From NCBI GenBank assembly GCA_019058315.1, contig JAHPZH010000004.1, forward strand, positions 192,001-256,000: a DNA stretch of 64,000 bases, read 5' to 3'. Shown one piece after another: positions 20,904 to 49,010 of the stretch (positions within the stretch are counted from its first letter, which is position 1; each line of letters starts with the position of its first letter). Origin of the DNA: Candidatus Helarchaeota archaeon. GTDB taxonomy: Archaea > Asgardarchaeota > Lokiarchaeia > Helarchaeales > RDOG01. The translations under genes and the position numbers were made by a program. The notes under the pieces are model-generated. The model was not told where the DNA came from. It saw only the letters and a list, made by a program, of their open reading frames with translations, and did not search any database.

Positions 20904-23900
20904 TTATTCTGTTTCTTTCTTTTCCTTTGCTTTTCTACTTAATTCCGATCCAAAACCCTTTACTGCTTGGATGAATCCTGATATTAAAGTTGGATCTAAA
21001 CCTTTTTCTACTTCGTAATTAAAGATATCTATTCCCGTTCCTTTATGTATTACCAAAATATGTCGAATATTTGCAACGTCTGCAACTGAAGAAATAGTCT
21101 TTTTCTTCTCAGCTTCTATTTTTACTTTTCTCCTTCTAGCTCCTACTCCCGCGACAATAGCAATTGCTGCAACACCTACTGCCCCTATAACAATAAATAA
21201 GATAATTGGATCAAGTCCTTTTGGACCTAAAAGTGCACCAAGTAAAGCTGCCATTAAGTTTTCTCCTGGAGAAGGAAGGACTACAACAGTGAACTTTCTT
21301 ATAGACGAACTGGTTAATCCAGCAGCATCGGTAACATTGACTTCAATTGTAACATTTCCAGCTGGAATTTGTGTATTGCTGCGAAATTCGTATATTCCTG
21401 AAGGTGAACCAACTGGATTTAAAAAGATTGTAAAACGAGAATCATTTATCATGACCGATTGAATATTTGAACCTGTTCCATCTACAGTACCATTAATTTT
21501 TATAATAACTTCTTCAGTTTGGTCTCCATCTGAAGCAGGGAAAGTAATCGAGATGGTTGGATTAGTATTATCGATATCAGAAAATCTAGTAGTTGATGTT
21601 GTCAATGCCGCTGAATCAGTCACATTTACTAATACTGAAATATTTCCATCTGGGATGAATGTGTTATTTCTGAATTCATATGCACCAGAAGGAGTGCCTG
21701 ATGGATTAGTGAAAATAGTAAATCTGGAATCATTTATCATGACTGATATTATGTTTGAACCAGTTCCATCCGCATTTCCGCTAATAGAAATAATCACTCC
21801 AGTATCAATATCTCCATTGGAAGCAGGATCTGTAATCGAAATTGTGGGGTTTGTATTATCAATGTCAAACCATCTTGTAGCTGAGGTAGTTAACAGTGGC
21901 ACATTTGTAACATTAACACGGATTCCAAGGTTTCCATCTGGGATAAATGTATTATTTCTGAATTCATATGCTCCGGAAGGCGATCCAGTAGGATCAGTAA
22001 AAATGGTAAATCGAGAATCATTTATGGTAACTGATATTATATTTGAACCAGTTCCATCCACATTTCCACTAATTGATATAATCGCTCCAGTATCAATATC
22101 TCCATTGGAAGCAGGATCTGTAATCGAGATTGAAGGATATGTATTATCAACATCGCACCATCGAGTAGTTGAAGTTGTAAGACTTGCAGAATCTGTAACA
22201 TTAACAAGGATTCCAAGATTTCCATCTGGGATGAACGTATTATTTCGGAATTCATAAGCTCCAGAAGGTGATCCAGAAGGATCGGTGAAGATAGTAAATC
22301 GGGAATCATTAATATTGACTGATGTTATGTTTGAACCAGTTCCATCCGCATTTCCGCTAATTGATATAATCGCTCCCGAATCAATTTCTCCATCAGAAGC
22401 AGGATCTGTAATTGAGATTGAAGGATATGTATTATCAACATCGCACCATCGAGTAGTTGAAGTTGTAAGACCTGCAGAATCTGTAACATTAACAAGGATT
22501 CCAAGATTTCCGTCTGGGATGAAGGTATTATTACGAAATTCATAAGCTCCAGAAGGAGTACCTGATGGATCAGTAAATATAGAAAATCTTGAATCATTTA
22601 TCATGACAGAGGCAATATAAGAACCTGTGCCATCCGCATTACCACTTATAGATATAATTGCACCAGTGTCTATATCTCCATCAGATGAAGGATCAGTTAT
22701 TGAAATAGTTGGGTATACATTATCTATATTGAACCATCTAGTTGCCAATGAGGTCCTACCAGCAAAATCTGTCACATTAACTTCAATCGAAATTAATCCA
22801 TTTGGGATAAATGTGTTATTATTGAATGCATAAATCCCACTAGGTGTATAAGAAGGATCAATTGAAATAGTAAACCTTGAATCGTTGATCATTACAGAAT
22901 ATATATCTGTGCCAGTTCCATCAACAGTACCATTTATCCAAATAATATTACTTGTGATATTTGCATTATTTACCGTAGGATAACTTATAGAAATTGTCGG
23001 ATCTAGTGGATCTAATATTATCCAACGCCAATTTGATCCATTATTTCCAGCATAATCTTCAGCAACTATTGTAATATTATTCCAACCTTGTAGTAAACCG
23101 ATAAGCTGATTAGTGGATGTCCCCACATATTGACTTGAACCATTTCTAAATACTTGATATATTCTAATACCACTTTCTAGATCAAAACTACTTGTCCAAT
23201 TAACTGGAACTGGTGTAACACTGCTATTTAATTTATTAACCGGAATATCAATAATAACAGAGGGATTAATGACATCTTGAGTTAAATTCCAATAAATTGT
23301 AAACATTTGAGTTAAATAACCTTGTTTAGAAGCAGTTATGTTTATTTCAAATGTATTATTCAAAGTATAATCGGTATAATTAAGTTGTATATTATAAGTC
23401 TGATCGATTCCATTCCAGTATAAATTACCTTCTTGTCCTGTTTCATTTGTTGTATAATTAACATTGGAATTTGATAAGTTAGCCCCTGTATCCCAATTGA
23501 AATAATTTACTTGTATTGTTAAATTAAACGGATCATAATTGCTCGTAATAACATTTACTGGTAGAATTCGATTTAAACTTGTATTATAAACAAGATCAAA
23601 CGTTCTACTCTGCGTTGCATTATTAAACCAATCTTTCGAACCATTTACCACAATTTGATAGGTCCCATTGACAAAATTATCGGATGATATAGTATAATTG
23701 TAATATCCTGGAGTGGCACTACTTTGTAAGGTATCTTCAAGCACTAGTGTATGACCAGCACTTTCATTATATATATGAAATGTAAGATTCGCACCTGTTA
23801 TAGGGGCGTTTGCATGTGTATCATTGAAATAAGCAGTCAAATTAATATCTTGACCGATAAGTTGAATACCAGTTATTTCGTTCTCATTAATTAATGCAAT

Positions 23901-25598
23901 CTCTGTATCATTAATTACAAGAATATACGTCTGGTTAATTCCTGCAAATGTATTATTACTCCAAACTATTTGAACTGTATAATTCCCAGTGGTAGCATCG
24001 GTTGGAACAGTTAAATTAAAAAACACAAAACTTCCAAGAGATGCACTACTAACAGAAGTCCAAGCAGCGGTTAAATCATCATTTGTGGTATTATATATTG
24101 TTAAATTAACTATACCATCTGTAAACCCATTGACTGTAGCATTTACTTGAATTGCATCCCCATGCACAAATGCTTGAGGGTGATAAACAGTAACTATAGT
24201 GGACTGGTTTAATGCCAGATTTATATCACGAGGAGGGTTCTGAAACGTGAAATGCCAATTTCCATCAGTTAAAATATCATCGGTATTATTGGAAAGGTAA
24301 ATCCATTTATTATTTTGTACTATTCCGTTTGTTACATTTAGCCCAGAAGAATTTAAGGCTAAATTCATGGTCCAATTTGAATTTGGTTTATAAATTGTCA
24401 CTGTATAATTTGTTAATGATTCTCCGTAGGCTGGAATTGGATTAGATACAGTAAAATTCGTTATCCAGTTAACCAATTGTCCATTATGGGTTATATTATA
24501 TATTACATTGTCGGTTAATGTCTCGTTAAAATTTTTCGAGGTCCAAGTCAAGTTACAAGAATAACTAGCATTTGTAGATATTATAACTGATTTATTTTCT
24601 CCGTCATTATCTGCAAAATTAAAATTAGAGACGGTGCTATTAACATCATAAACGGTGCTATCAATTGTCATATTCATATCAATTTCTTCTGGATTCATAT
24701 TAGTTAATGTGTTATTCGAAGAATCGATATAAACCGTTCTCAGTTTTAATGATAAATCTTGGGTATTAACTTGACTCCACACTCCGACATATTGATATAT
24801 ATATCCCTCATCAACATTATCTCCACCATTAAAAGTGGTATCCCAATTATATATCCAATGAACACCAGTGGTCCCTGGGATGCTATCTACTAAATTTGTA
24901 GCGTTAATCACAAAATAATAATAACCCGCAGTTAAATTGACGTTTATATTATTGAAAACATTCCAAGTGGTAGATCCAAATGTAGTAACTCTTGTATCGC
25001 TCCAGATCGATGTATTTGGTGCTAGACCAACTCCAGTTGCGTTCCAGATCTCAATGTCATAATTACCTGCAAAGAGAATCAAATAACCATAGATACTGAT
25101 ATCGGTTATTCTAGAATCTCTTGAAAGATTAAAAGACATTGCATAAGGAGATGAAGAACTGCTAAGAATATATTTTAAAGCACTATGATTCTCTTCAATA
25201 TCAATCCAAGTAGGTTCTGCAGAAATATTTTGTATATTAATTTCATAAGATGTACGATTATAATCTGAGGGAGTAGTAATATCTATATCACGTTCGTTAG
25301 CACTTACACCTAATTCATCATTTGTCTGATTTCTTAAGTTTTGTACAAGCCAATTAAGATTTGTTTTATTAGATTCGACGGTCTGATTAACTTTCAAAGG
25401 ACTCCTTGTACCATTTGCTTGATCCTTTGAAATTTCATCAAAAACATCCGTGTTAATATCTGGATTTTGATTATTAGCGTTTTGTTTACATAAAGGTGGT
25501 AAAATGTCAAGATTATTACTTTGAACAATTCCATGAATTGCAAGAAATGGCGAGACCATCATCAACATTAATACAAAAAAGATAGCTTTATTTCGCAT
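20904..25598 (-). CDS. Single-pass cell-surface glycoprotein (1564 aa): signal peptide, head region, about 6 Ig-like 96-aa repeats, TM, cytoplasmic half-longin tail
   Basis: N-terminal hydrophobic signal; many NxS/T sequons; TM IILFIVIGAVGVAAIAIVAGVGA followed by RRRK; tail IRHILVIHKGTGIDIF...LDPTLISGFIQAVKGFGSEL then stop. Confidence 0.9.
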   Translation of the reverse strand: MRNKAIFFVLMLMMVSPFLAIHGIVQSNNLDILPPLCKQNANNQNPDINTDVFDEISKDQANGTRSPLKVNQTVESNKTNLNWLVQNLRNQTNDELGVSANERDIDITTPSDYNRTSYEINIQNISAEPTWIDIEENHSALKYILSSSSSPYAMSFNLSRDSRITDISIYGYLILFAGNYDIEIWNATGVGLAPNTSIWSDTRVTTFGSTTWNVFNNINVNLTAGYYYFVINATNLVDSIPGTTGVHWIYNWDTTFNGGDNVDEGYIYQYVGVWSQVNTQDLSLKLRTVYIDSSNNTLTNMNPEEIDMNMTIDSTVYDVNSTVSNFNFADNDGENKSVIISTNASYSCNLTWTSKNFNETLTDNVIYNITHNGQLVNWITNFTVSNPIPAYGESLTNYTVTIYKPNSNWTMNLALNSSGLNVTNGIVQNNKWIYLSNNTDDILTDGNWHFTFQNPPRDINLALNQSTIVTVYHPQAFVHGDAIQVNATVNGFTDGIVNLTIYNTTNDDLTAAWTSVSSASLGSFVFFNLTVPTDATTGNYTVQIVWSNNTFAGINQTYILVINDTEIALINENEITGIQLIGQDINLTAYFNDTHANAPITGANLTFHIYNESAGHTLVLEDTLQSSATPGYYNYTISSDNFVNGTYQIVVNGSKDWFNNATQSRTFDLVYNTSLNRILPVNVITSNYDPFNLTIQVNYFNWDTGANLSNSNVNYTTNETGQEGNLYWNGIDQTYNIQLNYTDYTLNNTFEINITASKQGYLTQMFTIYWNLTQDVINPSVIIDIPVNKLNSSVTPVPVNWTSSFDLESGIRIYQVFRNGSSQYVGTSTNQLIGLLQGWNNITIVAEDYAGNNGSNWRWIILDPLDPTISISYPTVNNANITSNIIWINGTVDGTGTDIYSVMINDSRFTISIDPSYTPSGIYAFNNNTFIPNGLISIEVNVTDFAGRTSLATRWFNIDNVYPTISITDPSSDGDIDTGAIISISGNADGTGSYIASVMINDSRFSIFTDPSGTPSGAYEFRNNTFIPDGNLGILVNVTDSAGLTTSTTRWCDVDNTYPSISITDPASDGEIDSGAIISISGNADGTGSNITSVNINDSRFTIFTDPSGSPSGAYEFRNNTFIPDGNLGILVNVTDSASLTTSTTRWCDVDNTYPSISITDPASNGDIDTGAIISISGNVDGTGSNIISVTINDSRFTIFTDPTGSPSGAYEFRNNTFIPDGNLGIRVNVTNVPLLTTSATRWFDIDNTNPTISITDPASNGDIDTGVIISISGNADGTGSNIISVMINDSRFTIFTNPSGTPSGAYEFRNNTFIPDGNISVLVNVTDSAALTTSTTRFSDIDNTNPTISITFPASDGDQTEEVIIKINGTVDGTGSNIQSVMINDSRFTIFLNPVGSPSGIYEFRSNTQIPAGNVTIEVNVTDAAGLTSSSIRKFTVVVLPSPGENLMAALLGALLGPKGLDPIILFIVIGAVGVAAIAIVAGVGARRRKVKIEAEKKKTISSVADVANIRHILVIHKGTGIDIFNYEVEKGLDPTLISGFIQAVKGFGSELSRKAKEKKETE
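21285..23010 (-). repeat. About 6 tandem 288-bp (96-aa) Ig-like coding repeats
   Basis: Unit DNTxPTISITDPASxGDIDTG.IISISGNADGTGSNI.SV.INDSRFTIFTDPSG.PSGAYEFRNNTFIPDGN..I.VNVTDSAGLTTSTTRW. Confidence 0.92.
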
Positions 25599-25947
25599 TA
25601 TTATTCCGACCTTTTTTAACTAATATAATTATTCCTTTTGCCTTTTTTAACAGATATTTGAAATTCTCATCATTTAAGTCAATAAAATCTCTAATTTCTG
25701 AAGATATTTTAATTCTCCCAATATTATCAACAGTACCAAACACTGATACGTGTTTACCTGGAAGTTCCATAGGTTTTTTTAAGTCTGATTCTTTACGAAA
25801 TTCAATGAAATTCTTTCCGATTTGATATAACTCTTGTAAAAGTGTATCTTTACTAATACCGAGTTCTTCCCGCCATTTTTTTGGCAAGACGATTCGATAT
25901 TTGTCAATTTTTACTTCTTTTTGCTCTAGCTCTTCTGTTGACATCAA
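25588..25947 (-). CDS. Double AbrB/SpoVT-domain (MraZ-like) DNA-binding protein
   Basis: Two units, KIDKYRIVLPKKWREELGI and TVDNIGRIKISSEIRDFIDL. Its end overlaps the start of the 1564-aa gene by 11 nt. Confidence 0.75.
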   Translation of the reverse strand: MMSTEELEQKEVKIDKYRIVLPKKWREELGISKDTLLQELYQIGKNFIEFRKESDLKKPMELPGKHVSVFGTVDNIGRIKISSEIRDFIDLNDENFKYLLKKAKGIIILVKKGRNNNAK

Positions 25948-26214: not shown

Positions 26215-27060
26215 TTATGTCGTTATTTTATATTGGTCTAATTTTGATTTCGGTATTTTTAAAATTTCAAACAGTGGACCTAATTTTTTTATATTTCCTT
26301 CATATCTTTTTGTTTTTTTACCTTTAATTTCGATAATTAAATCTAATTCTTTTAATTTTGTGATAATATCATTAAACATTTTTGCGCTTAGGGCTGGGGC
26401 TTTTGTTGATAATGTAATTAATTCGCTTTTAGGATTCAATAAGATTAACTCTAGAACTGCAAAAATATCTTGATTTTTTAAAAATATAATAGATTCATGA
26501 TATTCAGGATTAATTTTAGATGCAAAATACCAAATTTTTAGATTAACTTTACTTTTTTTGATGTAATCGAAGTCTTCTAACATTTTCAAGTGATAAGCAG
26601 CTTGTTGAGGAGTTATATTTAATTGGTTTTGAATTTCTTTTAAAGTAGTTCCCGGAAAATTTGAAATGTAAACAGCAATTTTTTTTCTTTTATCGCTCTC
26701 AAGAATATTATCATCTGTAATTATAGTTTTTTTTGCTATGTAATTTTTCGTAATTAATTGATAAATAGCTTGACTAATTTCATATGCATTAAGTTTTAAT
26801 TTATTAACTGACAACCAATACAATTCTTGAATGTTTATAGAACCTTTTTTCATTAATTTTTCTGCGAATTTTAATATTGATGCTTCAGTGGATGAAATTT
26901 TTTCTTTATTCTTATCAAATTTCTCTTTTTTCTCCTCTTTGGTTTCAACTTTCTTATCCTTTTTTATTTCTTCTTTCTTATCTTCTTTTTTCTTTTTATC
27001 TTCTGGTATTGAGGGTTTTTGAAAAGGTATATATCTTGGAGCTCTTCTAGGTCGTTCCAT
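26215..27060 (-). CDS. Multi winged-helix (ArsR/MarR-like) protein with R/P-rich leader and K/E/D linker
   Basis: LESDKRKKIAVYISNFPG...EIQNQL...YHLKMLEDFDYI HTH, plus flanking wHTH-like units; leader MERPRRAPRYIPFQKPSIPEDKKK; SD GTGA. Confidence 0.8.
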   Translation of the reverse strand: MERPRRAPRYIPFQKPSIPEDKKKKEDKKEEIKKDKKVETKEEKKEKFDKNKEKISSTEASILKFAEKLMKKGSINIQELYWLSVNKLKLNAYEISQAIYQLITKNYIAKKTIITDDNILESDKRKKIAVYISNFPGTTLKEIQNQLNITPQQAAYHLKMLEDFDYIKKSKVNLKIWYFASKINPEYHESIIFLKNQDIFAVLELILLNPKSELITLSTKAPALSAKMFNDIITKLKELDLIIEIKGKKTKRYEGNIKKLGPLFEILKIPKSKLDQYKITT

Positions 27061-27118
27061 TTTTTTTCATCACTAATTTTTTTTATTTTTAAATTTTTAA
27101 GTAATTTTTTATAATAAT

Positions 27119-30100
27119 TTAAAAATTATCGTCAATTTTTTCTAAAGTGTCTAAAATTTCTTTTCTTTTCTTAGGATCTAGACCGGCTAATTCCTCTAAT
27201 ATGTCTAGCTTTTCGGATTCGTTAGGAATGTCTAGGTTCATGATTCGAATTATTTCCTCCTTGGATAACATTGTAAATTCTTGTTTGAAAAAGTCCTTAA
27301 GAACTTCATCTTCAACATCGTGTATGGGTACAACTGTTCTTCCAACATCCGGTGTTCTTTTTACAACCTTTTTGGGTTTTCTTCTAGCTATTCCTAAAAT
27401 TATTGCAAATAAACCAACGGCTATTGATGCAAAGACAATTAAGATTAAAATTAAATTATCTCCTGCCCCTACTAGTGGTGGTAGAAAAAGTATACCTTCT
27501 GCTGCTGTAATTGGTGCTATAGCATAATATGAAAGATTTGTGGTAAACCATTCTAAGTAATTTCCAGTAGTATTTAATGTGGCATTTAATTCTATCCACT
27601 TTGTGATATTAAAATAGAATATCCTTAAATCAGTCTCACTAATATTAAGAGCTGATTCGTTATAGTATAATTTCATAGTTGCATTTAATAGTGCTGTTGG
27701 ATTCTGTAAAGTAAATCCAAAAATACCTAAAAAGTCTGGAAGAGAAGTTCCAGTTGGATTACTAGTATAATAACTCATATTTATATTGGTATCAATTGAG
27801 ACAAAAATTCGAAGTTCGCATACTATATTACCTTTAGAGTCTGTTAAGTATACTATATTTTCTTGACCTGCAATAAGTCCTTGTGGAGTGTTATTTGAAT
27901 TCTGTAGAACTGTAAATGTTATTGTCAAATTTTTTCTTAATCCTACTGAATCATTTACTGATATTCTTAATGCAATTAAACCATTTGGAAGATAGCTTGA
28001 GTTGATAAATCTAAAATTACCCCAATTATTTCCACTTGGATCTACAGATAATGTAAAATTGGTATTATTAATAGTGACCGTACTAATTAAGCTTCCCGTT
28101 CCATTTACAAATCCTTCAATTTGATAATTATTTCCTACTTGAATTGTATCATTAAACATTGGGGTAGTTATTTGTATTGTAGGATTGATATTGTCAATAT
28201 AGAACCATCGAGTAGTTAAAGTATTCAATCCCGTAGAATCAGTAACATTTACTAAAATTGAAATAATACCGTCTACGATTATAGTGTTATTTCTAAATTC
28301 ATAAGCACCAGAAGGTGTTCCAGAAGGATCCGTGAAGATTGTGAATCTTGAATCATTAATTAGAACTGATGTAATATTAGACCCAGTACCGTCTACATTA
28401 CCACTAACTGATATTATATTCCCCGTATCAAAATCTCCATTTGAAGCTGGATCTGTAATTATTACAGTTGGGGCAGTATTGTCAATATAAAACCAACGGT
28501 TATTTGTTGTAGTTAAGCCAATAGAATCGGTTACATTAACTAGGACTGATATTAAGCCATCTGTAACAAATGTATTATTTCTAAATTCAAAAACTCCTGA
28601 AATAGAACCTGCGGGGTTGATAAAAAGAGTAAATCTTGAATCGTTAATCATTACTGATATAATATTTGATGCTGTTCCATTTGCAAAGCCAGTAATTGTA
28701 ATTGTATTTCCAGAATCTATTTGACCGTTTGAAATTGGATCTGTAATCGAAATATTTGGTGGAGAATTATCAACTCTAAACCATCTTGTAGTTGAGATTG
28801 TCAAGTTTGCACTATCTGTAATATTGACTTCGATTGAGATTACACCGTCTGAGACATATGAATTATTTGTGAATGTGTAGAAACCAGAAGGGCTTCCCGT
28901 TGGATCGCCTACAAGATTAAATCTAGAATCGTTTATCATAACAGATTGAATATTAGAACCCGTCCCATCTACCCAACCACTTACTAATATAGTGTTACCA
29001 GTAACTACGAGCCCATTTGCAGCTGGATTAATTATTGAAATAGTAGGTAGAGTATTATCAATAATAAACCATCTAACCATGCTATCTATAAGCCCTCCGG
29101 TATTATTAAGGGTCACATTAACTGCTATTATGCCATCCGGGATAAAGCTGTTATTTTCAAAGCCATAATTACCAAATCCAGTTCCAGAAGGGTCGATGGT
29201 AAGAATAAAACGGCTATCATTGATCCAAATAGTATCTATATTAACCCCACCACCATCAGCAGTACCGTTTATTGTTATATTGGTACCTGTGTCAATATCA
29301 CTATTTGCGGTTGGGTGATCTATGGTTACACTTGGACCAATAATATACGTAAACCACCAGATTATAGAATTCGTTAAATTAGCGGAATCGGTTACATTTG
29401 CTTCGACTGATACAGTTCCTAAATTAATGAAACTATTATTAGTAAAGATATAAGGTCCTGAAGCTGTTCCTGCCGGATCTGTAGTCAATATAAACCTTGA
29501 ATCATTAATTTGAACTGAAAGGATGTTAGATCCTGTTCCATCAACTGTTCCCTCAATAGTAACAGAAGATCCACTATCCGTTGTTCCATTTGGAAAAGGG
29601 TTAGTTATGGCAATTGTCGGATTTGTATTATCGAGATTAAACCACCTTGATAATGAAGTTGTTAAACTAGCAGTATCTGTGACATTAACAGTAATTGAAA
29701 TGATGCCATCTGGAATATATGTATTGTTATTAAATGCATAGTTTCCTGAAGGAGAACCTGTCGGATCAACTACAATAGTAAATCTGGAATCATTAATCAT
29801 TAATGATAGGATGTTAGACCCGGTACCATCTGCAGTCCCATTTACCCATATGTCAACTCCTGTATCAACATCGCCATCCGAAGCAGGATCAGCAATTGAA
29901 ATCATAGGATAAGTGTTATCAATATCAAACCATCTTGTTGCAAAATCTGTTAGATTTGCACTGTCTGTTACGTTGACTTCAACTGCTATATTACCATCTG
30001 GAATATAGGAATTGTTATTAAATGCATAGCTTCCTGATGGGGAGCCTGATGGATCAATGAAGATTGTAAATCGGGAGTCATTAATCATTACGGAAAGAAT

Positions 30101-42100: not shown

Positions 42101-45100
42101 TGTGTTATTTCTAAATTCATAAGCTCCAGAAGGAGATCCTGAAGGATCTGTAAAAATTGTAAATCTAGAATCATTAATCAAAACAGATACGATATTAGAA
42201 CCAGTGCCATCGGCATTTCCACTGATTGAAATAATAGTACCTGTATCAATATCTCCATCAGATGCAGGATCTGTAATTGTTATGGTTGGGTATGTATTGT
42301 CAATATCAAACCATCTAGTTGCAGAGGTTGTCAAGCTTGCAGAATCAGTCACATTCACTAGGATTGCAACATTTCCGTCCGGAATAAATGTGTTATTTCT
42401 AAATTCATATGCACCAGAAGGAGTCCCTGATGGATCTGTAAAAATTGTAAAACGAGAATCATTTATCATTACTGATACAATGTTAGAACCTGTTCCATCC
42501 ACATTACCGCCAATTGAGATGGTGGTCCCAGTATCTATATCACCGTCCGATGCCGGATCTGTAATTGAAATGGTAGGATAGGTATTGTCTATATCAAACC
42601 ATCTTGTGGTAGAAGTTGTCAAGCTAGCGGAATCGGTTACATTAACTAGGATGGCAATATTACCGTCTGGGATGAATGTATTATTTCTAAATTCATAAGC
42701 TCCAGAGGGACTGCCCGAAGGATCAGTAAAGATAGTAAATCTAGAATCATTAATCATAACAGAAACTATGTTAGAGCCAGTTCCATCTGCATTACCACTG
42801 ATTGAAATTATCACCCCAGTATCAATATCTCCATCAGAAGCTGGATCTGTGATTGAAATGGTAGGATAGGTATTGTCTATATCAAACCATCGAGTAGTAG
42901 AAGCAGTTAGACTAGCTGAATCCGTCACATTGACGAGAATTCCAATATTTCCGTCCGGAATGAATGTGTTATTTCTAAATTCATAAGCTCCAGAGGGACT
43001 GCCCGAAGGATCAGTAAAGATAGTAAATCTAGAATCATTAATCATAACAGAAACTATGTTAGAGCCAGTTCCATCTGCATTACCACTGATTGAAATTATC
43101 ACCCCAGTATCAATATCTCCATCAGAAGCTGGATCTGTGATTGAAATGGTAGGATAGGTATTGTCTATATCAAACCATCGAGTAGTAGAAGCAGTTAGAC
43201 TAGCTGAATCCGTCACATTGACGAGAATTCCAATATTTCCGTCCGGAATGAATGTGTTATTTCTAAATTCATAAGCTCCAGAGGGACTGCCCGAAGGATC
43301 AGTAAAGATAGTAAATCTAGAATCATTGATCATAACAGAAACAATATTAGATCCCGTGCCATCTGCATTTCCGCTTATTGAAATAATAGCTCCAGTATCA
43401 ATATCTCCGTCTGAAGCTGGATCGGTAATTGAAATGGTTGGATAAGTATTGTCTATATCAAACCATCGAGTCGTTAATGTGGTTAAGCCTGCAGAATCAG
43501 TTACATTAACAAGAACTCCAATATTTCCGTCCGGTATGAATGTGTTATTTCTAAATTCATAAGCTCCAGAAGGAGATCCCGAAGGATCTGTAAAAATTGT
43601 AAAACGGGAATCGTTGATCATGACTGATACGATATTGGAACCAGTACCATCAGCATTTCCACTAATTGAAATAATGGTCCCAGTATCAATATCTCCATCA
43701 GAAGCAGGATCTGTTATTGTTATTGTTGGATATGTATTATCTATATCAAACCATCGTGTTGTTGATGTGGTTAAACCCGCAGAATCCGTCACATTTACTA
43801 GAACTGCAATATTACCGTCTGGTATAAATGTGTTATTCCTGAATTCATAAGCTCCAGAAGGAGATCCCGAAGGATCTGTAAAAATTGTAAAACGAGAATC
43901 ATTTATCATTACTGATAAAATATTAGATCCAGTACCATCGGCGTTTCCACTAATTGAGATAATAACACCAGTATCTATATCACCGTCTGATGCGGGATCT
44001 GTTATTGTTATTGTAGGATCTGTATTATCTATATCAAACCAGCGTGAAGCGGTTGTTGTTAAGCTCGCTTGGTCAGTTACATTAACTTGAATTGCCACAT
44101 TTCCATCGGGGATATATGTATTATTTCTAAATTCATAAGCTCCAGAAGGAGATCCCGAAGGATCTGTAAAAATTGTAAAACGGGAATCGTTGATCATGAC
44201 TGATACGATATTGGAACCAGTACCATCAGCATTTCCACTTATTGATATAATAGCTCCAGTATCTATATCACCATTTGAAGCTGGATCAGTTATTGTTAAG
44301 GACGGAAGTGTATTATCTATATCAAACCATCGAGTAGCGGATGTTGTTAATCCGGCTGTATCTGTTACGTTCACTAGAATTGCGACATTCCCATCAGGAA
44401 TAAAAGTATTATTTCGGAATTCATATGCTCCTGAAGGAGTTCCTGAAGGATCTGTAAAAATTGTAAAACGAGAATCATTTATCATTACTGATACAATATT
44501 TGAACCTGTTCCATCAGCGTTGCCGCTTACGGAAATTATAGCCCCCGTATCTATATCTCCATCAGATGCGGGATCTGTTATTGATATCGTAGGTGGTGTA
44601 TTATCTATATAGAACCAGCGAATAATAGAAGAAGTTAAACCTGATGAATCTGTAATATTTATTTTAATTGCAATATATCCGTCTGCAATATAAGATGAAT
44701 TTCTAAATTCATAATTTCCGGAAAGGCTTCCTGAGGGATCCAGAAATATATTAAAATTAGAATTATTAATCTGAATAGATGTGATTTCAGTTCCGGTTCC
44801 ATTGGCAAATCCACTGATTGAAATTATAACCCCCGTATCAATGGAACCATTAGATGCGGGATCTGTAACTGTAATAGTAGGATTAATCGAATCCATAATT
44901 ACCCAAATCATGAAAGACCCATTATTTCTTGCATAATCTTGTGCAACGACTGTTATATTGTTCCAACCTTCAACCAAGTTAATATTTTGAACAGTGGATG
45001 TACCTGTATATTGAATTGATCCATTTCTAATGACTTCATAAACTTTAATTCCACTTTCAGAATCGTAACTACTTGTCCAATTTACTTGGACAGAGGCTGC

Positions 45101-47464
45101 AGATGTATTCAATTTATCAACAGGACTATCGATGATGACTGTTGGATTTGTATTATCTGAGCTTACATTCCAATAAATAATTTCAGATCGACTTTTATAA
45201 CCTAACTTTGAAGAAGTAATGTTAATTTCATAAATATTATCTAAAGTAAAATCCGAATAGTTAAGTTGGATATAATACGTCTCATTGGTTGCATGCCATA
45301 GGAAATTTCCATCTTGACCTGTCATATTACTATTATAAGTTACATTTGCATTTGTAATATTAAGACCAGTTTTCAAATCGATATATTGTACTATTATAGT
45401 GAGATTAAATGGCTCAAAATTACTCGTTATTGTAGTGCTAGGTTCCAATCGAATTAAACTTGTATTATAAATCAGTGAAAAAGTATTATTTATAGACGCA
45501 TTGTTATACCATGCTTTAGAAGCATTAATTACAACTTTATATGAACCATTTACAAAGTTATTTGTGGATAATGTATAATTATAATATCCGGAACTTAGAC
45601 TTTCCGTGAGGTTATCTTGCAAGACAAGAGATGAATCAGTCTCATTAAATATTTGAATTGTAAGGTTTGCTTCTGTTATTGGTGAATTAGTATGAGTATC
45701 ATTGTAAAACACAGTGACATTCAAATCGACTCCAATTAAATGGACGCCACTAACCTCACCTAAGTCATCAAAGCTTAGATTTGTGGAATTAACTACAAAT
45801 AAGTAAGTTTGATTTATTGCTGAATAAGATTCATTAGTCCAAATAATTTGAACAGTATAATTTCCTGTCTCTGTTGAAGCAGGAACGGTTACATTGAATA
45901 AAACGAAATCTACGAGTGTAGAACTATTAATTGTTGTCCAATCGGAAGTAACATCGTCATTAGTAGTATTATATATTGATAAATTCATTATACCATTAGA
46001 AAATCCACTAACAGAAGTATTTATTTGTATATTTTCTCCATGAATATAAGCTCGAGAATTATATGATGATGTAACTGCAGATTGGTTTAAAGATATTAAT
46101 ATTGTTTGTGTTGGACTCCTAAAAGTAAATTTCCAGAGACCTTCGGTTAAAATATCGTTGGTGTTATTTGATAAATATACAATGTTGTTCTGTTCAATTA
46201 TACCATTGGTAACATTTACATCTGAAGAATTTAATGCTAAAATCATATTCCAACTTGATAATGGTTTGGAAAGGGTAACCGAAAAATTACTTAAAGACTC
46301 TCCATATGAAGCTGTTGGAGCGGATACTGAAAAATTAGTTTTCCAATAACTCCACAACTCTCCAAGAGAAATATTATGTTTTATATTAGTAGTTTGTGTC
46401 AAATTAACATTTATAGATGTCCATGTCAGATTACATGAAAAACTAGAATTTGTGGATATTGTTATTGATTTGTTTTCTCCGTCATTATCTGCAAAATTGA
46501 AATTATAGGTAGTACTATTAACATCATGAACGGTACTATCTATCGTCATGTTCATATCGATATCTTCTGGGTTCATATTTGTAAGAGTGTTATTCGAAGA
46601 ATCGATATAAACTGTTTTTAGTTTTAATGACATATCTTGTGTATTTATTTGACTCCAGACTCCAACATACTGATATAGATAACCCTCATCAACGTTATCT
46701 CCTCCATTAAAAGTTGTATCCCAATTATAAAACCAATGAACACCAGTGGTTCCTGGGATACTATCTACTAAATTAGTTGCGTTAATCACAAAATAATAAA
46801 ATCCTGCTGTCAAATTAACGTTAATATTACTAAACACATTCCATGTAGTAGTTCCAAATTGGCCAGTCCTCGAACTATTCCATAATAGTGCTTGTGGTGC
46901 ATTTCCAACTCCTGTAGAATTCCAAATCTCAATGTCATAATATCCTGAAAAAAGTATCAGGTAACCATATAAGCTAATATCAGTGATTCTAGAATCTCTC
47001 GAGAGGATAAAAGACATTGCGTAAGGAGAAGAACTACTACTAAGAATATATTTAAGAGTACTAAAATTTTGTTCAACATCCCTCCAAGTAGATTCTGCAG
47101 AAATATTCTGTATATTAATTTCATAATTGGTACGGTTATAGTCTGTGGGAACAGTTACATCGAATTGACGTTCATTGTCACCAGCTGGAGATTCAGGACC
47201 TGTTGCGTTTATTACATTACTTACTAACCAATTTAAATAAGTTTTATTTGAATAACTTGTCTGTGTGACATTTAGACCATTTCGTGTACCATTTGCATAA
47301 TCCTTAGTAATCTCATTAAAGGTTTTTGATTTAAAATTTAATTTTTCCAATAAATTCAATGGAATTGGAGATTCTGAGTTATATTGATTATAATTTAAAA
47401 TCGCCAAATAAGGTGAAGTTAGTATGATAATAAAAATAATGATTTTAATAGGAATTTTTCGCAA
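27119..47464 (-). CDS. Giant single-pass cell-surface glycoprotein (6781 aa), paralog of 20904..25598, with about 59 Ig-like repeats and a helical cytoplasmic tail
   Basis: Uninterrupted 20.3-kb ORF; signal peptide; shared head (KYILSSSSSPYAMSF..SRDSRITDIS); TM LILILIVFASIAVGLFAIILGIA followed by RRK; about 88-aa tail. Confidence 0.93.
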   Translation of the reverse strand: MRKIPIKIIIFIIILTSPYLAILNYNQYNSESPIPLNLLEKLNFKSKTFNEITKDYANGTRNGLNVTQTSYSNKTYLNWLVSNVINATGPESPAGDNERQFDVTVPTDYNRTNYEINIQNISAESTWRDVEQNFSTLKYILSSSSSPYAMSFILSRDSRITDISLYGYLILFSGYYDIEIWNSTGVGNAPQALLWNSSRTGQFGTTTWNVFSNINVNLTAGFYYFVINATNLVDSIPGTTGVHWFYNWDTTFNGGDNVDEGYLYQYVGVWSQINTQDMSLKLKTVYIDSSNNTLTNMNPEDIDMNMTIDSTVHDVNSTTYNFNFADNDGENKSITISTNSSFSCNLTWTSINVNLTQTTNIKHNISLGELWSYWKTNFSVSAPTASYGESLSNFSVTLSKPLSSWNMILALNSSDVNVTNGIIEQNNIVYLSNNTNDILTEGLWKFTFRSPTQTILISLNQSAVTSSYNSRAYIHGENIQINTSVSGFSNGIMNLSIYNTTNDDVTSDWTTINSSTLVDFVLFNVTVPASTETGNYTVQIIWTNESYSAINQTYLFVVNSTNLSFDDLGEVSGVHLIGVDLNVTVFYNDTHTNSPITEANLTIQIFNETDSSLVLQDNLTESLSSGYYNYTLSTNNFVNGSYKVVINASKAWYNNASINNTFSLIYNTSLIRLEPSTTITSNFEPFNLTIIVQYIDLKTGLNITNANVTYNSNMTGQDGNFLWHATNETYYIQLNYSDFTLDNIYEINITSSKLGYKSRSEIIYWNVSSDNTNPTVIIDSPVDKLNTSAASVQVNWTSSYDSESGIKVYEVIRNGSIQYTGTSTVQNINLVEGWNNITVVAQDYARNNGSFMIWVIMDSINPTITVTDPASNGSIDTGVIISISGFANGTGTEITSIQINNSNFNIFLDPSGSLSGNYEFRNSSYIADGYIAIKINITDSSGLTSSIIRWFYIDNTPPTISITDPASDGDIDTGAIISVSGNADGTGSNIVSVMINDSRFTIFTDPSGTPSGAYEFRNNTFIPDGNVAILVNVTDTAGLTTSATRWFDIDNTLPSLTITDPASNGDIDTGAIISISGNADGTGSNIVSVMINDSRFTIFTDPSGSPSGAYEFRNNTYIPDGNVAIQVNVTDQASLTTTASRWFDIDNTDPTITITDPASDGDIDTGVIISISGNADGTGSNILSVMINDSRFTIFTDPSGSPSGAYEFRNNTFIPDGNIAVLVNVTDSAGLTTSTTRWFDIDNTYPTITITDPASDGDIDTGTIISISGNADGTGSNIVSVMINDSRFTIFTDPSGSPSGAYEFRNNTFIPDGNIGVLVNVTDSAGLTTLTTRWFDIDNTYPTISITDPASDGDIDTGAIISISGNADGTGSNIVSVMINDSRFTIFTDPSGSPSGAYEFRNNTFIPDGNIGILVNVTDSASLTASTTRWFDIDNTYPTISITDPASDGDIDTGVIISISGNADGTGSNIVSVMINDSRFTIFTDPSGSPSGAYEFRNNTFIPDGNIGILVNVTDSASLTASTTRWFDIDNTYPTISITDPASDGDIDTGVIISISGNADGTGSNIVSVMINDSRFTIFTDPSGSPSGAYEFRNNTFIPDGNIAILVNVTDSASLTTSTTRWFDIDNTYPTISITDPASDGDIDTGTTISIGGNVDGTGSNIVSVMINDSRFTIFTDPSGTPSGAYEFRNNTFIPDGNVAILVNVTDSASLTTSATRWFDIDNTYPTITITDPASDGDIDTGTIISISGNADGTGSNIVSVLINDSRFTIFTDPSGSPSGAYEFRNNTFIPDGNIGILVNVTDSASLTTSTTRWFDIDNTDPTISITDPASDGDIDTGTIISIGGNVDGTGSNIVSVMINDSRFTIFIDPSGTPSGVYEFRNNTFIPDGNVAVLVNVTDSASLTTSTTRWFDIDNTYPTISITDPASDGDIDTGTIISISGNADGTGSNIASVMINDSRFTIFTDPSGTPSGAYEFRNNTFIPDGNIAILVNVTDSAGLTTSATRWFDIDNTNPTITITDPASDGDIDTGVIISISGNADGTGSNIVSVMINDSRFTIFTDPSGSPSGAYEFRNNTFIPDGNVAVLVNVTDSASLTTSTTRWFDIDNTYPTISITDPASDGDIDTGTIISISGNTDGTGSNIASVMINDSRFTIFTDPSGTPSGAYEFRNNTLILDGNIAILVNVTDSAGLTTSATRWFDIDNTNPTITITDPASDGDVDTGVIISISGNADGTGSNIVSVMINDSRFTIFTDPSGSPSGAYEFRNNTFIPDGNIGILVNVTDSASLTTSTTRWFDIDNTDPTISITDPASDGDIDTGTIISIGGNADGTGSNIASVMINESRFTIFTDPSGSPSGAYEFRNNTFIPDGNIAVLVNVTDSAGLTTSTTRWFDIDNIYPTISITDPTSDGDIDTGAIISISGNADGTGSNIVSVMINDSRFTIFTDPSGSPSGAYEFRNNTFIPDGNIGILVNVTDSAAQTTSTTRWFDIDNTDPTITITDPASDGDIDTGAIISISGNADGTGSNIVSVMINDSRFTIFTDPSGSPSGAYEFRNNTFISDGNIGVLVNITDSAGLITSTTRWFDVDNIYPTISIIDPTSDGDVDTGAIISISGNADGTGSNIVSVMINDSRFTIFTDPSGTPSGAYEFRNNTFIPDGNIAILVNVTDSASQTTSATRWFDIDNTYPTISITDPASDGDIDTGIIISVSGNADGTGTNIVSVMINDSRFTIFTDPSGTPSGAYEFRNNTFLADGNIGILVNITDSAGLTTSTTRWFDIDNTYPTISITDPTADGVTDTGTIISISGNVDGTGSNIISVMINDSRFTIFTDPSGTPSGAYEFRNNTFIADGNIGVLVNVTDSAGLTTSATRWFDIDNTYPTISITDPTSDGDIDTGVIISISGNADGTGSNIASVMINDSRFTIFTNPSGTPSGAYEFRNNTFLADGNIGVLVNVTDSAGLTTSTTRWFDIDNTYPTISIIDPASNGDIDTGAIISVSGNSDGTGSNIASVMINDSRFTIFTDPSGSPSGAYEFRNNTFIPDGNIGVLVNVTDSAGLTTSTTRWFDIDNTLPTISITDPASDGDIDTGVIISISGNADGTGSNIASVMINDSRFTIFTDPSGTPSGAYEFRNNTFIPDGNIGVLVNVTDSAGLTTSTTRWFDIDNTLPTISITDPASDGDIDTGVIISISGNADGTGSNIASVMINDSRFTIFTDPSGSPSGAYEFRNNTFIPDGNIGVLVNVTDSAGLTTSATRWFDIDNTLPTISITDPASDGDIDTGVIISISGNADGTGSNIVSVMINDSRFTIFTDPSGSPSGAYEFRNNSYIPDGNIGVLVNVTDSASLTASTTRWFDIDNTYPTISITDPASDGDIDTGAIISISGNADGTGSNIVSVMINDSRFTIFTDPSGTPSGAYEFRNNTFIPDGNIGVLVNVTDSAGLTTSTSRWFDIDNTYPTISIIDPASDGDIDTGNIISISGNADGTGSNIVSVLINDSRFTIFTDPSGTPSGAYEFRNNTYLADGNVGILVNVTDSAGLTTSNTRWFDIDNTYPTISITDPASDGDIDNGAIISVGGNADGTGSNIASVMINDTRFTIFTDPSGTPSGAYEFRNNTFIPDGNIGVLVNVTDSAGLTTSTTRWFDIDNTYPTITITDPASDGDIDTGAIIFISGNADGTGSNIISVMINDSRFTIFTDPSGSPSGAYEFRNNTFIPDGNVAVLVNVTDSASLTTSTTRWFDVDNTYPTISITDPVSDGDVDTGAIISISGNADGTGSNIVSVMINDSRFTILTDPSGSPSGAYEFRNNTYLADGNIGVLVNVTDTAGLTTSTTRWFDIDNTYPTISIADPASNGDLDTGAIIWINGTADGTGSDISSVMINDSRFTIFTDPSGSPSGNYAFNNNTLITDGTIAIEVNVTDSAYLTTSAIRWFILDNTNPTIVITHPFPNGTTDTGGSVTVDGWVDGTGTNIFSVQINDSRFTLTTNPVGSSSGPFTFSNNSFITLGNVAVKVNVTDSVGLTGSIARWFTYIIGPSVTVDHPSPDSAIDTGIDITINGTADGGGTNIDQVWINDSRFILTVNPSGSPSGVYGFQNISFIPDGRVAITITLNNSGGLSDYRIRWFIIDNTYPTISITDPTSDGDIDTGATISISGFVNGTGSNIQSVMINDSRFTIAVDPSGSASGIYTFNNNSYIPDGNIAVEVNITDTANLTVSTTRWFDIDNTYPTISITVPASNGDLVTGTDIWINGTVDGTGSNITSVMINDSRFTLIIDPSGSPSGNYAFNNNSYVADGIISIEVNITDSASLTSAAIRWLNLDNTNPSILINDPASNGDVDTGTIIWINGTVDGTGSNIVSVLINDSRFTIFTDPSGSPSGSFAFNNNSYITEGNIAIEVNVTDSASLTSSATRWFDVDNIYPTITINDPASDGDIDTGAIIWINGTVDGTGSNIISVLINDSRFTIFIDPSGSPSGSYAFNNNSYIPDGNIGIKVNITDSAGLTTPTTRWFDIDNTYPTITITDPASDGDVDTGAIISISGNADGTGSNIVSVMINDSRFTIFTDPSGTPSGAYEFRNNTFIPDGNIAIMVNVTDTASLTTSTTRWADIDNTYPTISITDPSSDGDIDTGAIISVSGNADGTGSNIASVMINDSRFTIFTDPSGTPSGAYEFRNNTFIPDGNIGILVNVTDSAGLTTSTTRWFDIDNTYPTISITDPASDGDIDTGTIISISGNADGTGSNIVSVMINDSRFTIFTDPSGSPSGAYEFRNNTFIPDGNIGILVNVTDSAGLTTSTTRWFDIDNTYPTISITDPASDGDIDTGTIISISGNADGTGSNIVSVMINDSRFTIFTDPSGSPSGAYEFRNNTFIPDGNIGILVNVTDSAGLTTSTTRWFDVDNTLPTITITDPASNGDIDTGAIISISGNADGTGSNIVSVMINDSRFTIFTDPSGSPSGAYEFRNNTFIPDGNIGILVNVTDSAGLTTSTTRWFDVDNTLPTITITDPASNGDIDTGAIISISGNADGTGSNIVSVMINDSRFTIFTDPSGSPSGAYEFRNNTFIPDGNIGILVNVTDSAGLTTSTTRWFDIDNTLPTITITDPVSDGDVDVGAIISVSGNADGTGSNIASVMINDSRFTIFTDPSGTPSGAYQFRNNTFIPDGNIGVLVNVTDSAGLTTSTTRWFDIDNTYPTISIIDPASDGDIDTGTIISISGNADGTGSNIASVMINDSRFTIFTDPSGTPSGAYEFRNNSFIPDGNIAILVNVTDSASLTTSAIRWFDIDNTYPTISITDPASDGAVDSGAIVSVSGNADGTGSNILSVMINDSRFTIFTDPSGTPSGAYEFRNNTFIPDGNIGVLVNVTDSAGLTTSTTRWFNIDNTYPTITITDPASNGDVDSGAIISISGNADGTGSNIISVMINDSRFTIFTDPSGSLSGPYEFRNNTYIPDGNVAIEVNVTNSAPLTISITRWFDIDNTYPTISITDPASDGVIDTGIIISVSGNANGTGSNIVSVMINDTRFTIFTDPSGTPSGAYEFRNNTFIPDGNIGVLVNVTDSAGLTVSTTRWFDIDNTYPTISITDPASDGDIDTGTIISISGNVNGTGTNIVSVMINDSRFTIFINPSGTPSGAYQFRNNTLIPDGNIAILVNVTDSAGLTTSTTRWFDIDNTNPTITITDPTSDGDIDTGAIISVSGNTDGTGSNIVSVMINDSRFTIFTDPSGTPSGAYEFRNNTFLADGNIGVLVNVTDTAGLTTSTTRWFDIDNTDPTISITDPTSDGDMDTGAIIWINGTTDGTGSNILSVMINDSRFTIFIDPSGSPSGSYAFNNNSYIPDGNIAVEVNVTDSANLTDFATRWFDIDNTYPMISIADPASDGDVDTGVDIWVNGTADGTGSNILSLMINDSRFTIVVDPTGSPSGNYAFNNNTYIPDGIISITVNVTDTASLTTSLSRWFNLDNTNPTIAITNPFPNGTTDSGSSVTIEGTVDGTGSNILSVQINDSRFILTTDPAGTASGPYIFTNNSFINLGTVSVEANVTDSANLTNSIIWWFTYIIGPSVTIDHPTANSDIDTGTNITINGTADGGGVNIDTIWINDSRFILTIDPSGTGFGNYGFENNSFIPDGIIAVNVTLNNTGGLIDSMVRWFIIDNTLPTISIINPAANGLVVTGNTILVSGWVDGTGSNIQSVMINDSRFNLVGDPTGSPSGFYTFTNNSYVSDGVISIEVNITDSANLTISTTRWFRVDNSPPNISITDPISNGQIDSGNTITITGFANGTASNIISVMINDSRFTLFINPAGSISGVFEFRNNTFVTDGLISVLVNVTDSIGLTTTNNRWFYIDNTAPTVIITDPASNGDFDTGNIISVSGNVDGTGSNITSVLINDSRFTIFTDPSGTPSGAYEFRNNTIIVDGIISILVNVTDSTGLNTLTTRWFYIDNINPTIQITTPMFNDTIQVGNNYQIEGFVNGTGSLISTVTINNTNFTLSVDPSGNNWGNFRFINSSYLPNGLIALRISVNDSVGLRKNLTITFTVLQNSNNTPQGLIAGQENIVYLTDSKGNIVCELRIFVSIDTNINMSYYTSNPTGTSLPDFLGIFGFTLQNPTALLNATMKLYYNESALNISETDLRIFYFNITKWIELNATLNTTGNYLEWFTTNLSYYAIAPITAAEGILFLPPLVGAGDNLILILIVFASIAVGLFAIILGIARRKPKKVVKRTPDVGRTVVPIHDVEDEVLKDFFKQEFTMLSKEEIIRIMNLDIPNESEKLDILEELAGLDPKKRKEILDTLEKIDDNF
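27905..44893 (-). repeat. About 59 tandem ~288-bp (96-aa) Ig-like coding repeats
   Basis: Span of about 17.0 kb divided by 288 bp. Same unit as in the short paralog, with several variant units. Confidence 0.93.
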
Positions 47465-47636: not shown

Positions 47637-49010
47637 TTATTTAAGAGCTTCTCTCAAACTAGCTAATTCTTTGAGATTTCTCATCCTCTCAACTTCTTCT
47701 AAATATTGCTTAGCTTCTGTCATTTCACCAATTTCTACAGATAGCTTTGAAGCTTGATCAAACAACATTGCAGCTTCATCGTATTTTCCACCAATTTCCA
47801 TTGTTTTTGCTTTATTAATAATCTCATTTCGTTCTTGTCTTAATCGTGGAATTCGTGAACGCATTTCCTGTGCGGTTTGACTAAAGAGCTGGGCACGTTC
47901 TGCAAATTCTTGAGCGACTATATTTTCGTATAATTGAGTAGAAAGTCCCGAAATACTAGATAATAATTGTGCAGCAGTACCAAAATCATCTCTTTTTACT
48001 GAATCATCCAGTTGAGAAAAAAGAATCTTCCTTTCTTCACGTATCCTTTTCCTGTTTTCAATTTCTGCACTAAGTTGCTCCGTTAGCTTTTTTTTAGGGA
48101 ATTGCTGAATTCTATCTAGAAAAGTTTTTCTACTATCTTCCGTAGAAACTAATAAATCTTCCAAAATTAAATTTTTATTTTCATTAGATAATGTCTTAAT
48201 TTCTGACATTTGATCCCATAGCATTCTACGTTCTGCGGATTGAGCTACTTGTTCTATATCTATAGCTATAAATAATCCTTTGTCATTTAGACCAAAAATT
48301 GCCTTTACAATCTTATCTCGGGGCATTTTTGTTTTTTTAATAACTTCCTCAATGAGTCTAGCTGTAAAAAAGAAACCTCTTTCTTTAGAAAGGTCTTTCG
48401 CGACTTTCATTATTGAATTTTCTGCTGAATTAAGTTTTGCCTGTTTTATAATTTCAGGATCCATTGGTAAAATTATGGGCTTAATTAAAAACAAATTGAA
48501 GTGTGTATCAACCAAATCTTTGGCTGGAGCAAAATCACTTACTTTTCCCGAGAACTCATCAATATATCGTTTAAATTTTCTATTAAAATCTTCTGCAAAT
48601 GTAGTAAGAGATTGCTTGATAGGATCGGAAGGATCGGATTCAAGCATTACTGCGACCATTACATCTTCCGTATCTGCAATACAGATTTGGAATTGTTCCA
48701 TTGGATATGTATAAAGTACACAAGTGGTTCCTGCCATTTCTTCGGTTATATCGGCACTTTTTGGTTTTTTCTTCTCGTCTTTCTTCTTTTTCTTTTCGTC
48801 TTCTCTTCTTTCCTTTTCTTCTTCCTTTTTCCTCTTCTCGTCTTCCTTTTTTCTTAATTTTTCTTCTTTTTTATTGTCTTTCTTTTTATCGACTTTCTCT
48901 TTTTTATCCTCTTTTTTGTCGTCTTTTTTGTCATCTTTTTTTTTCTTGTCTTCTGGAATCGTGGGTTTTTGGAAAGGTATAAACCTTGGAGTTCTTCGGG
49001 GTCGTGCCAT
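47637..49010 (-). CDS. Cytoplasmic multidomain protein: R/P leader, K/E/D linker, C-half longin-like, winged helix, helical motif, TPR-like C-terminus
   Basis: MARPRRTPRFIPFQKPTIPEDKKK; FQICIADTEDVMVAVMLESDPS...L..FAEDF..KF...F.GKVSDF; GKYDEAAMLFDQASKLSVEIG. SD AGGAG. Confidence 0.8.
   Translation of the reverse strand: MARPRRTPRFIPFQKPTIPEDKKKKDDKKDDKKEDKKEKVDKKKDNKKEEKLRKKEDEKRKKEEEKERREDEKKKKKDEKKKPKSADITEEMAGTTCVLYTYPMEQFQICIADTEDVMVAVMLESDPSDPIKQSLTTFAEDFNRKFKRYIDEFSGKVSDFAPAKDLVDTHFNLFLIKPIILPMDPEIIKQAKLNSAENSIMKVAKDLSKERGFFFTARLIEEVIKKTKMPRDKIVKAIFGLNDKGLFIAIDIEQVAQSAERRMLWDQMSEIKTLSNENKNLILEDLLVSTEDSRKTFLDRIQQFPKKKLTEQLSAEIENRKRIREERKILFSQLDDSVKRDDFGTAAQLLSSISGLSTQLYENIVAQEFAERAQLFSQTAQEMRSRIPRLRQERNEIINKAKTMEIGGKYDEAAMLFDQASKLSVEIGEMTEAKQYLEEVERMRNLKELASLREALK

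Follow-up and report, generated by a model that had tools for sequence, protein, structure and literature searches.

Longin domains are known from the SNAREs Sec22 and VAMP7, from Fuzzy and Mon1-Ccz1, from the TRAPP subunits Bet5 and Trs23, from the N-termini of the AP sigma and mu subunits, from the SRX domain of SRalpha and from a Lokiarchaeal Roadblock-Longin protein (8yqg), and the described domains are single-chain. SRX holds a soluble protein at a partner that is anchored in the membrane. Here, we analysed a 64,000-nucleotide (nt) stretch of a Candidatus Helarchaeota genome (contig JAHPZH010000004.1, positions 192,001 to 256,000; hereafter, the window), in which a domain with the same full-length fold and topology as these proteins in its intact paralogs (Z 10.9-12.9) is encoded in two genes and has no Pfam longin match. 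One gene encodes a surface receptor of 1564 amino acids (aa), whose cytoplasmic tail holds the N-terminal half (N-half) of the longin; the other encodes a soluble 457-aa adaptor with the C-terminal half (C-half). The longin itself is already known; what is new here is that it is naturally split, one part lying in a surface receptor and the other in a soluble adaptor, and no paper on a split longin or on gene fission within a longin was found in the literature. With a probability of roughly three in four, we consider that gene fission within the longin was followed by non-covalent reassembly that clips the adaptor onto the receptor.

Small domains completed by a second chain have precedents. 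PLC-gamma1 and the TRPC3 channel have been proposed to form a split PH domain between two molecules, and in chaperone-usher pili a missing strand is supplied in trans by donor-strand complementation. As in our cassette, a membrane protein and a soluble protein each give part of a small domain in the PH case, but the folds and organisms of both systems are unrelated to the split longin. The truncated roadblock proteins RBLC7 (LAMTOR4/5, DLRB1) belong to the same fold superfamily and likewise lack one element, which a helix of the partner protein supplies in trans (PMC10933270). The RBLC7 partner provides a C-terminal helix only, whereas in our case the other chain contributes about 40% of the domain, namely two strands and the central helix.

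Two complementary longin halves in one cassette

Positions are those of the window unless a contig prefix (C1:, C2:) or a locus prefix (L064 and others) is given. G000 denotes the genome that carries the window (5.79 Mb, 30% GC, 12 contigs named C1, C2 and so on); G001, G003, G004 and G006 are relatives of the same order; and P0001, P0002 and P0003 are the 457-aa adaptor, the 1564-aa receptor and a 281-aa protein of the same cassette. The initial annotation of the window had described five co-oriented genes, and gene calling recovered five open reading frames (ORFs) on the minus strand, in the order 457, 6781, 281, 119 and 1564 aa; the peptides it had quoted from tail and adaptor are both present in the translations. 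Ig-like repeats (Pfam Big_7 and Big_13) occur on both surface proteins, of 1564 and 6781 aa, and the nearest database homologs are labelled Candidatus Helarchaeota. The features of the receptor and the adaptor are as follows.

20904..25598, minus strand: 1564-aa single-pass surface receptor with signal peptide, Ig-repeat ectodomain, transmembrane helix and short cytoplasmic tail (ORF and translation)
21138..21209, minus strand: transmembrane helix of the receptor (residues 1464-1487), with a polybasic RRRK stretch after it (from sequence)
20940..21107, minus strand: conserved tail core of the receptor, residues 1498-1553, comprising the juxtamembrane segment KKKTISSV.DVAN and the longin N-half β1-β2-α1
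47637..49010, minus strand: gene of the 457-aa soluble adaptor P0001 (ORF; orthologs at 37-70% identity)
48945..49010, minus strand: N-terminal peptide motif of the adaptor, MARPRRTPRFIPFQKPTIPEDK, residues 1-22
48741..48944, minus strand: K/E-rich linker of the adaptor, residues 23-90, with one long predicted helix at 38-79 (AlphaFold2, AF2; predicted local distance difference test score, pLDDT, ~60-84)
48489..48740, minus strand: longin C-half β3-β4-β5-α2-α3 of the adaptor, residues 91-174 (family profile and AF2)
47640..48488, minus strand: all-helical C-terminal module of the adaptor, residues 175-457, winged-helix-like at ~195-250 and with long helical hairpins at 306-456

The receptor ectodomain carries 80 N-glycosylation sequons by sequon count and matches Pfam Big_7, MG2 and Big_13; the layout of transmembrane helix and polybasic stretch recurs in the receptors of G003, G004 and G006. 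The 77 residues after the transmembrane helix contain IRHILVIHKGTGIDIFNYEVEKGLDPTLISGFIQAVKGFGSEL and end with 11 charged residues, followed by a TAA stop. Within them, the longin N-half, IRHILVIHKG...GFGSEL, occupies residues 1511-1553 (20940-21068).

In the adaptor, the segment VLYTYPMEQFQICI...THF (residues 99-171) follows the K/E-rich stretch, and the segment VLYTYPMEQFQICIADTEDVMVAVMLES...THF comes after both the N-terminal motif and that stretch. The AF2 model of the whole adaptor (pLDDT 82.7) places strands at 98-103, 108-113 and 118-123 and helices at 129-151 and 157-171 of the C-half; the helical region 185-456 is confident (pLDDT ~90), and the N-terminus (residues 1-37, including the motif) is disordered. 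Linker length varies from ~30 to 130 aa among orthologs. The motif is kept in P0007-10, P0017, P0019, G003 and G006, is weaker in G001 and P0016, and is absent from G004 and P0018. We also considered the motif as a 'placeholder strand' in cis and found no support for this idea, as AF2 docks no motif onto the adaptor's own C-half (pLDDT <50). The adaptor had been labelled a 'wHTH/TPR' protein. Its all-helical, winged-helix-like character is a prediction of the AF2 model, but the label found no significant Pfam or fold match: the C-terminal module matched no Pfam or NCBIfam family, Foldseek with the whole model returned nothing at E<=0.001 (matches to TPR, Rap and GATOR-like proteins were weak and were not used), and ESM Atlas features for residues 175-457 gave one Asgard cluster at 0.82, below the meaningful level.

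To delineate the domain, each half was used as a query against all six-frame ORFs of G000, and a 125-position profile was then iterated. About 20 G000 proteins matched both halves, with the tail-like part directly before the adaptor-like part. The profile found 144 family copies in this genome, 127 of which cover it essentially in full. The receptor tail matched positions 1-53 only and the adaptor positions 41-124 only, so that the two are complementary, and contiguous homologs exist. Profile and family alignment place the break between them in the α1-β3 loop, where it had been proposed, and each half has its own start and Shine-Dalgarno (SD) sequence, again as proposed. The half-domain segments retain residues invariant across the whole family, including the G, L, G and E in the receptor tail. 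G000 holds one clean N-half copy (the receptor tail), one clean C-half copy (the adaptor) and no others; three further candidates (C2:123635-124534, C1:443168-444775 and C6:274795-276378) were rejected as halves, since all three have 43-65 residues ahead of the matching part and a fused Ras-like domain.

The assignment of the fold rests on the intact copies. An AF2 model computed from alignment A1, which holds 28 diverse intact copies, reached a pLDDT of 91.9 and has the order β1 β2 α1 β3 β4 β5 α2 α3 (strands E, helices H: E9-16, E22-27, H35-53, E61-63, E68-73, E77-83, H89-111, H117-131). VIA-align matched this model to Fuzzy (Z 12.9; root-mean-square deviation 2.7 Å, 121 residues aligned), Sec22 (Z 12.6; 2.4 Å, 116) and VAMP7 (Z 12.4; 2.7 Å, 116), and the solved Lokiarchaeal longin scored Z 10.9. 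The longin alignments span model residues 8-132, through the last helix α3; TRAPP Bet5, AP sigma/mu and SRX also match. All 42 Foldseek matches at E<=0.001 were longin or roadblock proteins. The roadblock/MglB matches were partial (Z 9-11.8), covering residues ~4-108 and ending before α3, and relative to the roadblock layout (αββαβββ, with a helix ahead of β1 and no α3) the N-terminal helix of the model is short (3-8) and its C-terminal helices number two. The full-length structural match, including α3, and the ββαβββαα order thus bear out the longin fold that the initial annotation had claimed for the pair. Sequence families were less informative: the longin segments fell into no Pfam or NCBIfam family, whether searched as halves, whole proteins or intact paralogs, five intact paralogs matched no Pfam family at E<=1, and Robl_LC7 did not match the intact paralogs. 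Weak matches of the profile to PDB sequences were all to longin proteins (AP-4 sigma, E 0.006; Trs23, 0.15; Bet5, 0.33; Mon1, 0.33). Across the family, very different partners are attached to the domain (examples at loci L001-L008 and L027-L046); many copies close ORFs of ~355-390 aa, and others ~1100-aa proteins, 700-760-aa winged-helix proteins or giant surface proteins.

Fused relatives and conservation of the split

Both fused and split homologs, as a search for the two forms had been suggested, were found. Class-level relatives, from other genomes of the Lokiarchaeia, carry the whole longin and the adaptor-like module in one ORF (G027, 1564 aa; G032, 1567 aa; G029, 2123 aa). Like the cassette, these fused receptors have a longin followed by a helical module, which is homologous to adaptor residues 109-445, so that the adaptor's C-terminal module corresponds to their C-terminal part; unlike the cassette, they are single polypeptides with an uninterrupted α1-β3 loop and without the N-terminal motif or the K/E-rich linker. 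The membrane-proximal tail of the receptor aligns in G027 and G029, and the ectodomain is homologous to that of the receptor in G032 and to that of its 6781-aa paralog in G029. Since fused relatives exist, the split longin is best read as the product of gene fission, and for the same reason it can be traced to a dated event.

Adaptor orthologs at 37-70% identity were present in metagenomes and in four further genomes of the order. In a search of 1.84 billion representative proteins, this ortholog clade scores at least 200 bits, and all other matches at most 81 bits. All eight ortholog cluster representatives that cover the region have the C-half only, and 128 of 143 more distant homologs have a complete longin. 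Four distant homologs (P0122, P0126, P0131 and P0141) match only the C-terminal part of the profile, with 28-160 residues ahead of the match; they could have divergent N-halves or represent independent splits. Receptor orthologs occur in four Helarchaeota metagenome-assembled genome (MAG) proteins (P0011-P0014) and in G001, G003, G004 and G006, and all eight of these, whose C-termini are readable, end a few residues past α1. Furthermore, P0002 and P0011-14 share 95-98% identity over the 56-residue tail core, against 38-85% over their ectodomains. The split is, on these comparisons, conserved and under selection.

The same data bear on whether the halves might be decaying relics, that is, a pseudogenised receptor tail and a functionless truncated paralog. 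Truncation is the usual origin of half domains, the interval between the two genes is repeat-bearing and rearranged among close relatives, and a transposase adjoins one homolog. Nevertheless, clean ORFs for both halves persist across lineages whose adaptors share only 37-45% identity, no part of the receptor is more conserved than the tail core, the residues invariant in the family are kept, and the adaptor has gained a conserved start, SD, motif and linker. We regard decay as highly improbable.

Gene order differs among these genomes. The initial annotation had placed the halves about 27 kb apart with the C-half first, which holds in G000 but not as a general layout: it reflects a local rearrangement, and G003, G004 and G006 have the two genes side by side with the N-half first, the adaptor gene coming directly after that of the receptor. 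There, the adaptor ATG lies 1 nt past the receptor stop or overlaps it, with the SD inside the upstream gene, an arrangement that, as a sequence pattern, is the usual signature of translational coupling. At locus L064, which belongs to another lineage, the order is adaptor, AbrB-like gene and surface protein, the last cut at the contig end with its tail unseen. The G000 order equals that of L064, except that the adaptor and AbrB-like genes are separated by an insertion of the 6781-aa and 281-aa genes.

Even less probable, and to our minds scarcely credible, is that the split is an artefact of misassembly or sequencing error, or that it is bypassed by programmed frameshifting or protein splicing. 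The abutting or overlapping frames in G003, G004 and G006 would fit such a scheme, and the linker DNA is A-rich and prone to indel errors. However, the stop past α1 and the ATG-led adaptor recur in independent assemblies of several samples, the junctions in the relatives carry an SD and an ATG with no shared slippery pattern, and no intein-like sequence flanks either end, the ends being charged low-complexity sequence. In G000 and L064, moreover, a read-through fusion is impossible, as the surface-protein gene is downstream of the adaptor gene. A Logan contig from the probable source run, a sample that is not independent, also crosses the receptor 3' end with 0 differences; other Logan runs yielded fragments of relatives only.

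In the scenario that we favour, the ancestor would have been one single-pass protein composed of an Ig-repeat ectodomain, a transmembrane helix, a cytoplasmic longin and a helical winged-helix-like module. In this Asgard order, the ancestral gene would have been cut inside the longin, at the α1-β3 loop. The receptor would have kept the transmembrane helix, the conserved juxtamembrane segment and β1-β2-α1, and the downstream product would have become a separate soluble 457-aa protein with β3-β4-β5-α2-α3 and the helical module, and would also have gained the short peptide motif at its N-terminus and the helical spacer rich in K and E.

Predicted reassembly of receptor tail and adaptor

We predicted the complex of the tail (74 residues) with adaptor residues 80-190, each supplied with its own alignment, together with three controls. 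The interface score ipSAE was 0.62, 0.60 and 0.62 for the pair and 0.00 for the three controls. A mark of 0.62 is reached by 58 of 80 solved complexes and by 2 of 110 mismatched pairs, a calibration that is only rough, as own alignments were supplied to the prediction. The runs agreed in at least 74% of contacts, with partner pLDDT of at least 65. The tightest predicted contacts set tail residues 21-29 (β1, IRHILVIHK) antiparallel to VMVAVML of the adaptor (β5), and one face of α1 is buried. The strand order of the longin sheet is 2-1-5-4-3, with β1 next to β5; the predicted pairing is the neighbour relation expected of such a sheet. A single, interdigitated longin fold had been named as the outcome to look for, and in the predicted complex the halves do rebuild one sheet, β1 against β5.

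On these models, the halves likely reassemble physically. The fragments would join non-covalently, with β1 of the tail antiparallel to β5 of the adaptor and α1 packed on the adaptor sheet. Reassembly would hold the adaptor at the cytoplasmic face of the receptor and so restore the single-chain state of the fused receptors of sister lineages.

Several points weigh against this proposal, including the rough calibration. Complex prediction tends to favour the halves of a split domain simply through their resemblance to solved folds, and for that reason the prediction speaks for compatibility, not binding. The conserved N-terminal motif and the K/E-rich helix of the adaptor have no role in the reassembly model. 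The two genes are not adjacent in G000, in G001 or in the MAG with P0008 and P0012, where they lie 27 kb apart or on different contigs, so that co-translation is not general. Finally, the 12 kb around the cassette contain no gene for a small GTPase.

We also weighed whether, after a real and conserved fission, the halves have ceased to pair, each having taken a new role. The hairpin and helix of the tail might then dock by edge-strand addition on an intact longin, and a different partner, or self-association, might stabilise the three-stranded half of the adaptor. The unlinked or rearranged genes of G000, G001 and the MAG with P0008 and P0012 are compatible with this, the approximately 140 other longin domains of G000 could offer sheet edges, and AF2 of the adaptor alone gives the C-half a pLDDT of ~85-90. 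Conversely, G000 has exactly one clean gene for each half, the halves co-occur in every genome where either is found, they are adjacent with apparently coupled translation in three genomes, and the predicted interface reproduces the native β1-β5 pairing. Taken together, independent new roles seem unlikely to us, although less so than decay of the halves, and we retain fission followed by reassembly.

Longins are known platforms of small GTPases; those of Asgards are treated as likely GTPase platforms, and their sets are expanded in Asgard genomes (PMC10933270, PMC12290439). In G000, the longin family is enriched next to Ras-like GTPase genes, an association in which 27 of its 144 genes are either fused to one or no more than 500 nt away (random mean 8.6, maximum 15); seven copies are fused to Ras-like GTPases, and the genome has ~104 Ras-like genes. 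The nearest small GTPase-like gene to the cassette is a 304-aa ORF with a partial Ras-family match at 8012-8923 (C1:200012-200923), 12 kb from the receptor. The rebuilt longin could, by analogy, serve as a small-GTPase platform or in dimerisation; given the distance of the cassette from any such gene, the GTPase role is drawn from the family only.

A further, speculative and rather doubtful extension is that the split acts as a switch. The longin would exist only when tail and adaptor meet, and the state of the ectodomain (ligand, clustering or tension on the Ig stalk) would control the assembly of a membrane platform that regulates a GTPase or releases the winged helix; the N-terminal peptide on its K/E-rich spacer would make a second regulated contact. 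If this were true, an Asgard archaeon would be using protein-fragment complementation, in a natural setting, to signal across its membrane.

A putative second receptor-partner pair and the meaning of the split

The cassette had been described as linking two Ig-repeat surface proteins to cytoplasmic partners through the split longin. This applies to the 1564-aa protein, which has a longin half, but not to the 6781-aa protein, which has none. The remaining features of the cassette are listed below.

27119..47464, minus strand: 6781-aa giant Ig-repeat surface protein, paralog of the receptor ectodomain (67% identity over residues 14-1438)
27386-27457, minus strand: transmembrane helix of the 6781-aa protein
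27122-27331, minus strand: cytoplasmic tail of the 6781-aa protein, ~70 aa and different from that of the receptor
26215..27060, minus strand: 281-aa winged-helix protein with an HVO_0163-like helix-turn-helix (Pfam PF24266, over cut-off)
25588..25947, minus strand: 119-aa AbrB/MazE/MraZ-like protein (Pfam and NCBIfam matches just below cut-off)

Pfam and NCBIfam gave no family for the tail of the 6781-aa protein. Tails of this type close 10 large surface proteins in G000, and a gene for a 281-type, HVO_0163-like winged-helix protein adjoins all 10 of their genes. These winged-helix neighbours are ~250 aa long, or 740-760 aa if fused to a longin, and three end in a longin. The module recurs at C3:120193-128438, C3:793387-798342, C3:614042-622655, C2:292507-302714, C5:81633-85899, C11:252577-268464 and C3:1059598-1066181. 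Judged from this gene neighbourhood, the 281-aa protein is a putative partner of the 6781-aa tail, and the window would hold two receptor-adaptor pairs of different kinds.

The first ~40 codons of the 281-aa gene duplicate those of the 457-aa gene (26940-27060 versus 48890-49010): the DNA is ~80% identical from the SD onward, and both encode the motif M.RPRR.PR[FY]IPFQKP.IPEDKKKK and the start of the linker. In G000, the N-terminal motif occurs only in P0001 and P0003. The 281-aa gene has copied the motif and linker codons of the 457-aa gene.

The stop of the 119-aa gene overlaps the receptor start codon by 11 nt, and an AbrB-like homolog takes the same overlapping position at L064 (2587-3030), L065 (334-687) and L066 (1784-2134). 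The protein has two swapped-hairpin-like repeats and may regulate or partner the receptor.

A 288-nt tandem unit, encoding a 96-aa Ig-like repeat, is present in 52.3 copies of ~80% identity at 29655-44714 in the 6781-aa gene and in 3.8 copies at 21642-22742 in the 1564-aa gene. Contigs of close relatives break within the repeat interval of the cassette, probably by reason of these repeats. Both outer flanks of the G000 cassette are syntenic with such contigs, and the interior is rearranged. Downstream of the receptor, an 84-aa ORF (19183-19437) encodes a protein 99-100% identical to the product of a gene in L065 and L066, where the counterpart has a weak ubiquitin Pfam match; its conserved neighbour genes (192 aa and 279 aa) have no Pfam family. 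A promoter and terminator scan, which used a bacterial consensus, gave counts at the shuffle level, and a look through public sequencing runs listed no RNA run that holds the sequence.

The second tail/winged-helix pairing hints that modular cassettes of receptor and adaptor make up a wider family. In eukaryotes, the machines that regulate GTPases are built around longin and roadblock domains, and Asgard archaea have greatly expanded sets of both. In a single genome with over 140 longin genes and ~100 small GTPase genes, the split gives a specific pairing: the two proteins share one domain, and the genome itself therefore indicates which soluble protein belongs to which receptor. The split longin also offers a clean natural case of a small α/β domain cut between secondary-structure elements and putatively still functional, whose fused and split forms can be compared, and may thus be of use in studies of protein evolution and in the design of split reporters.

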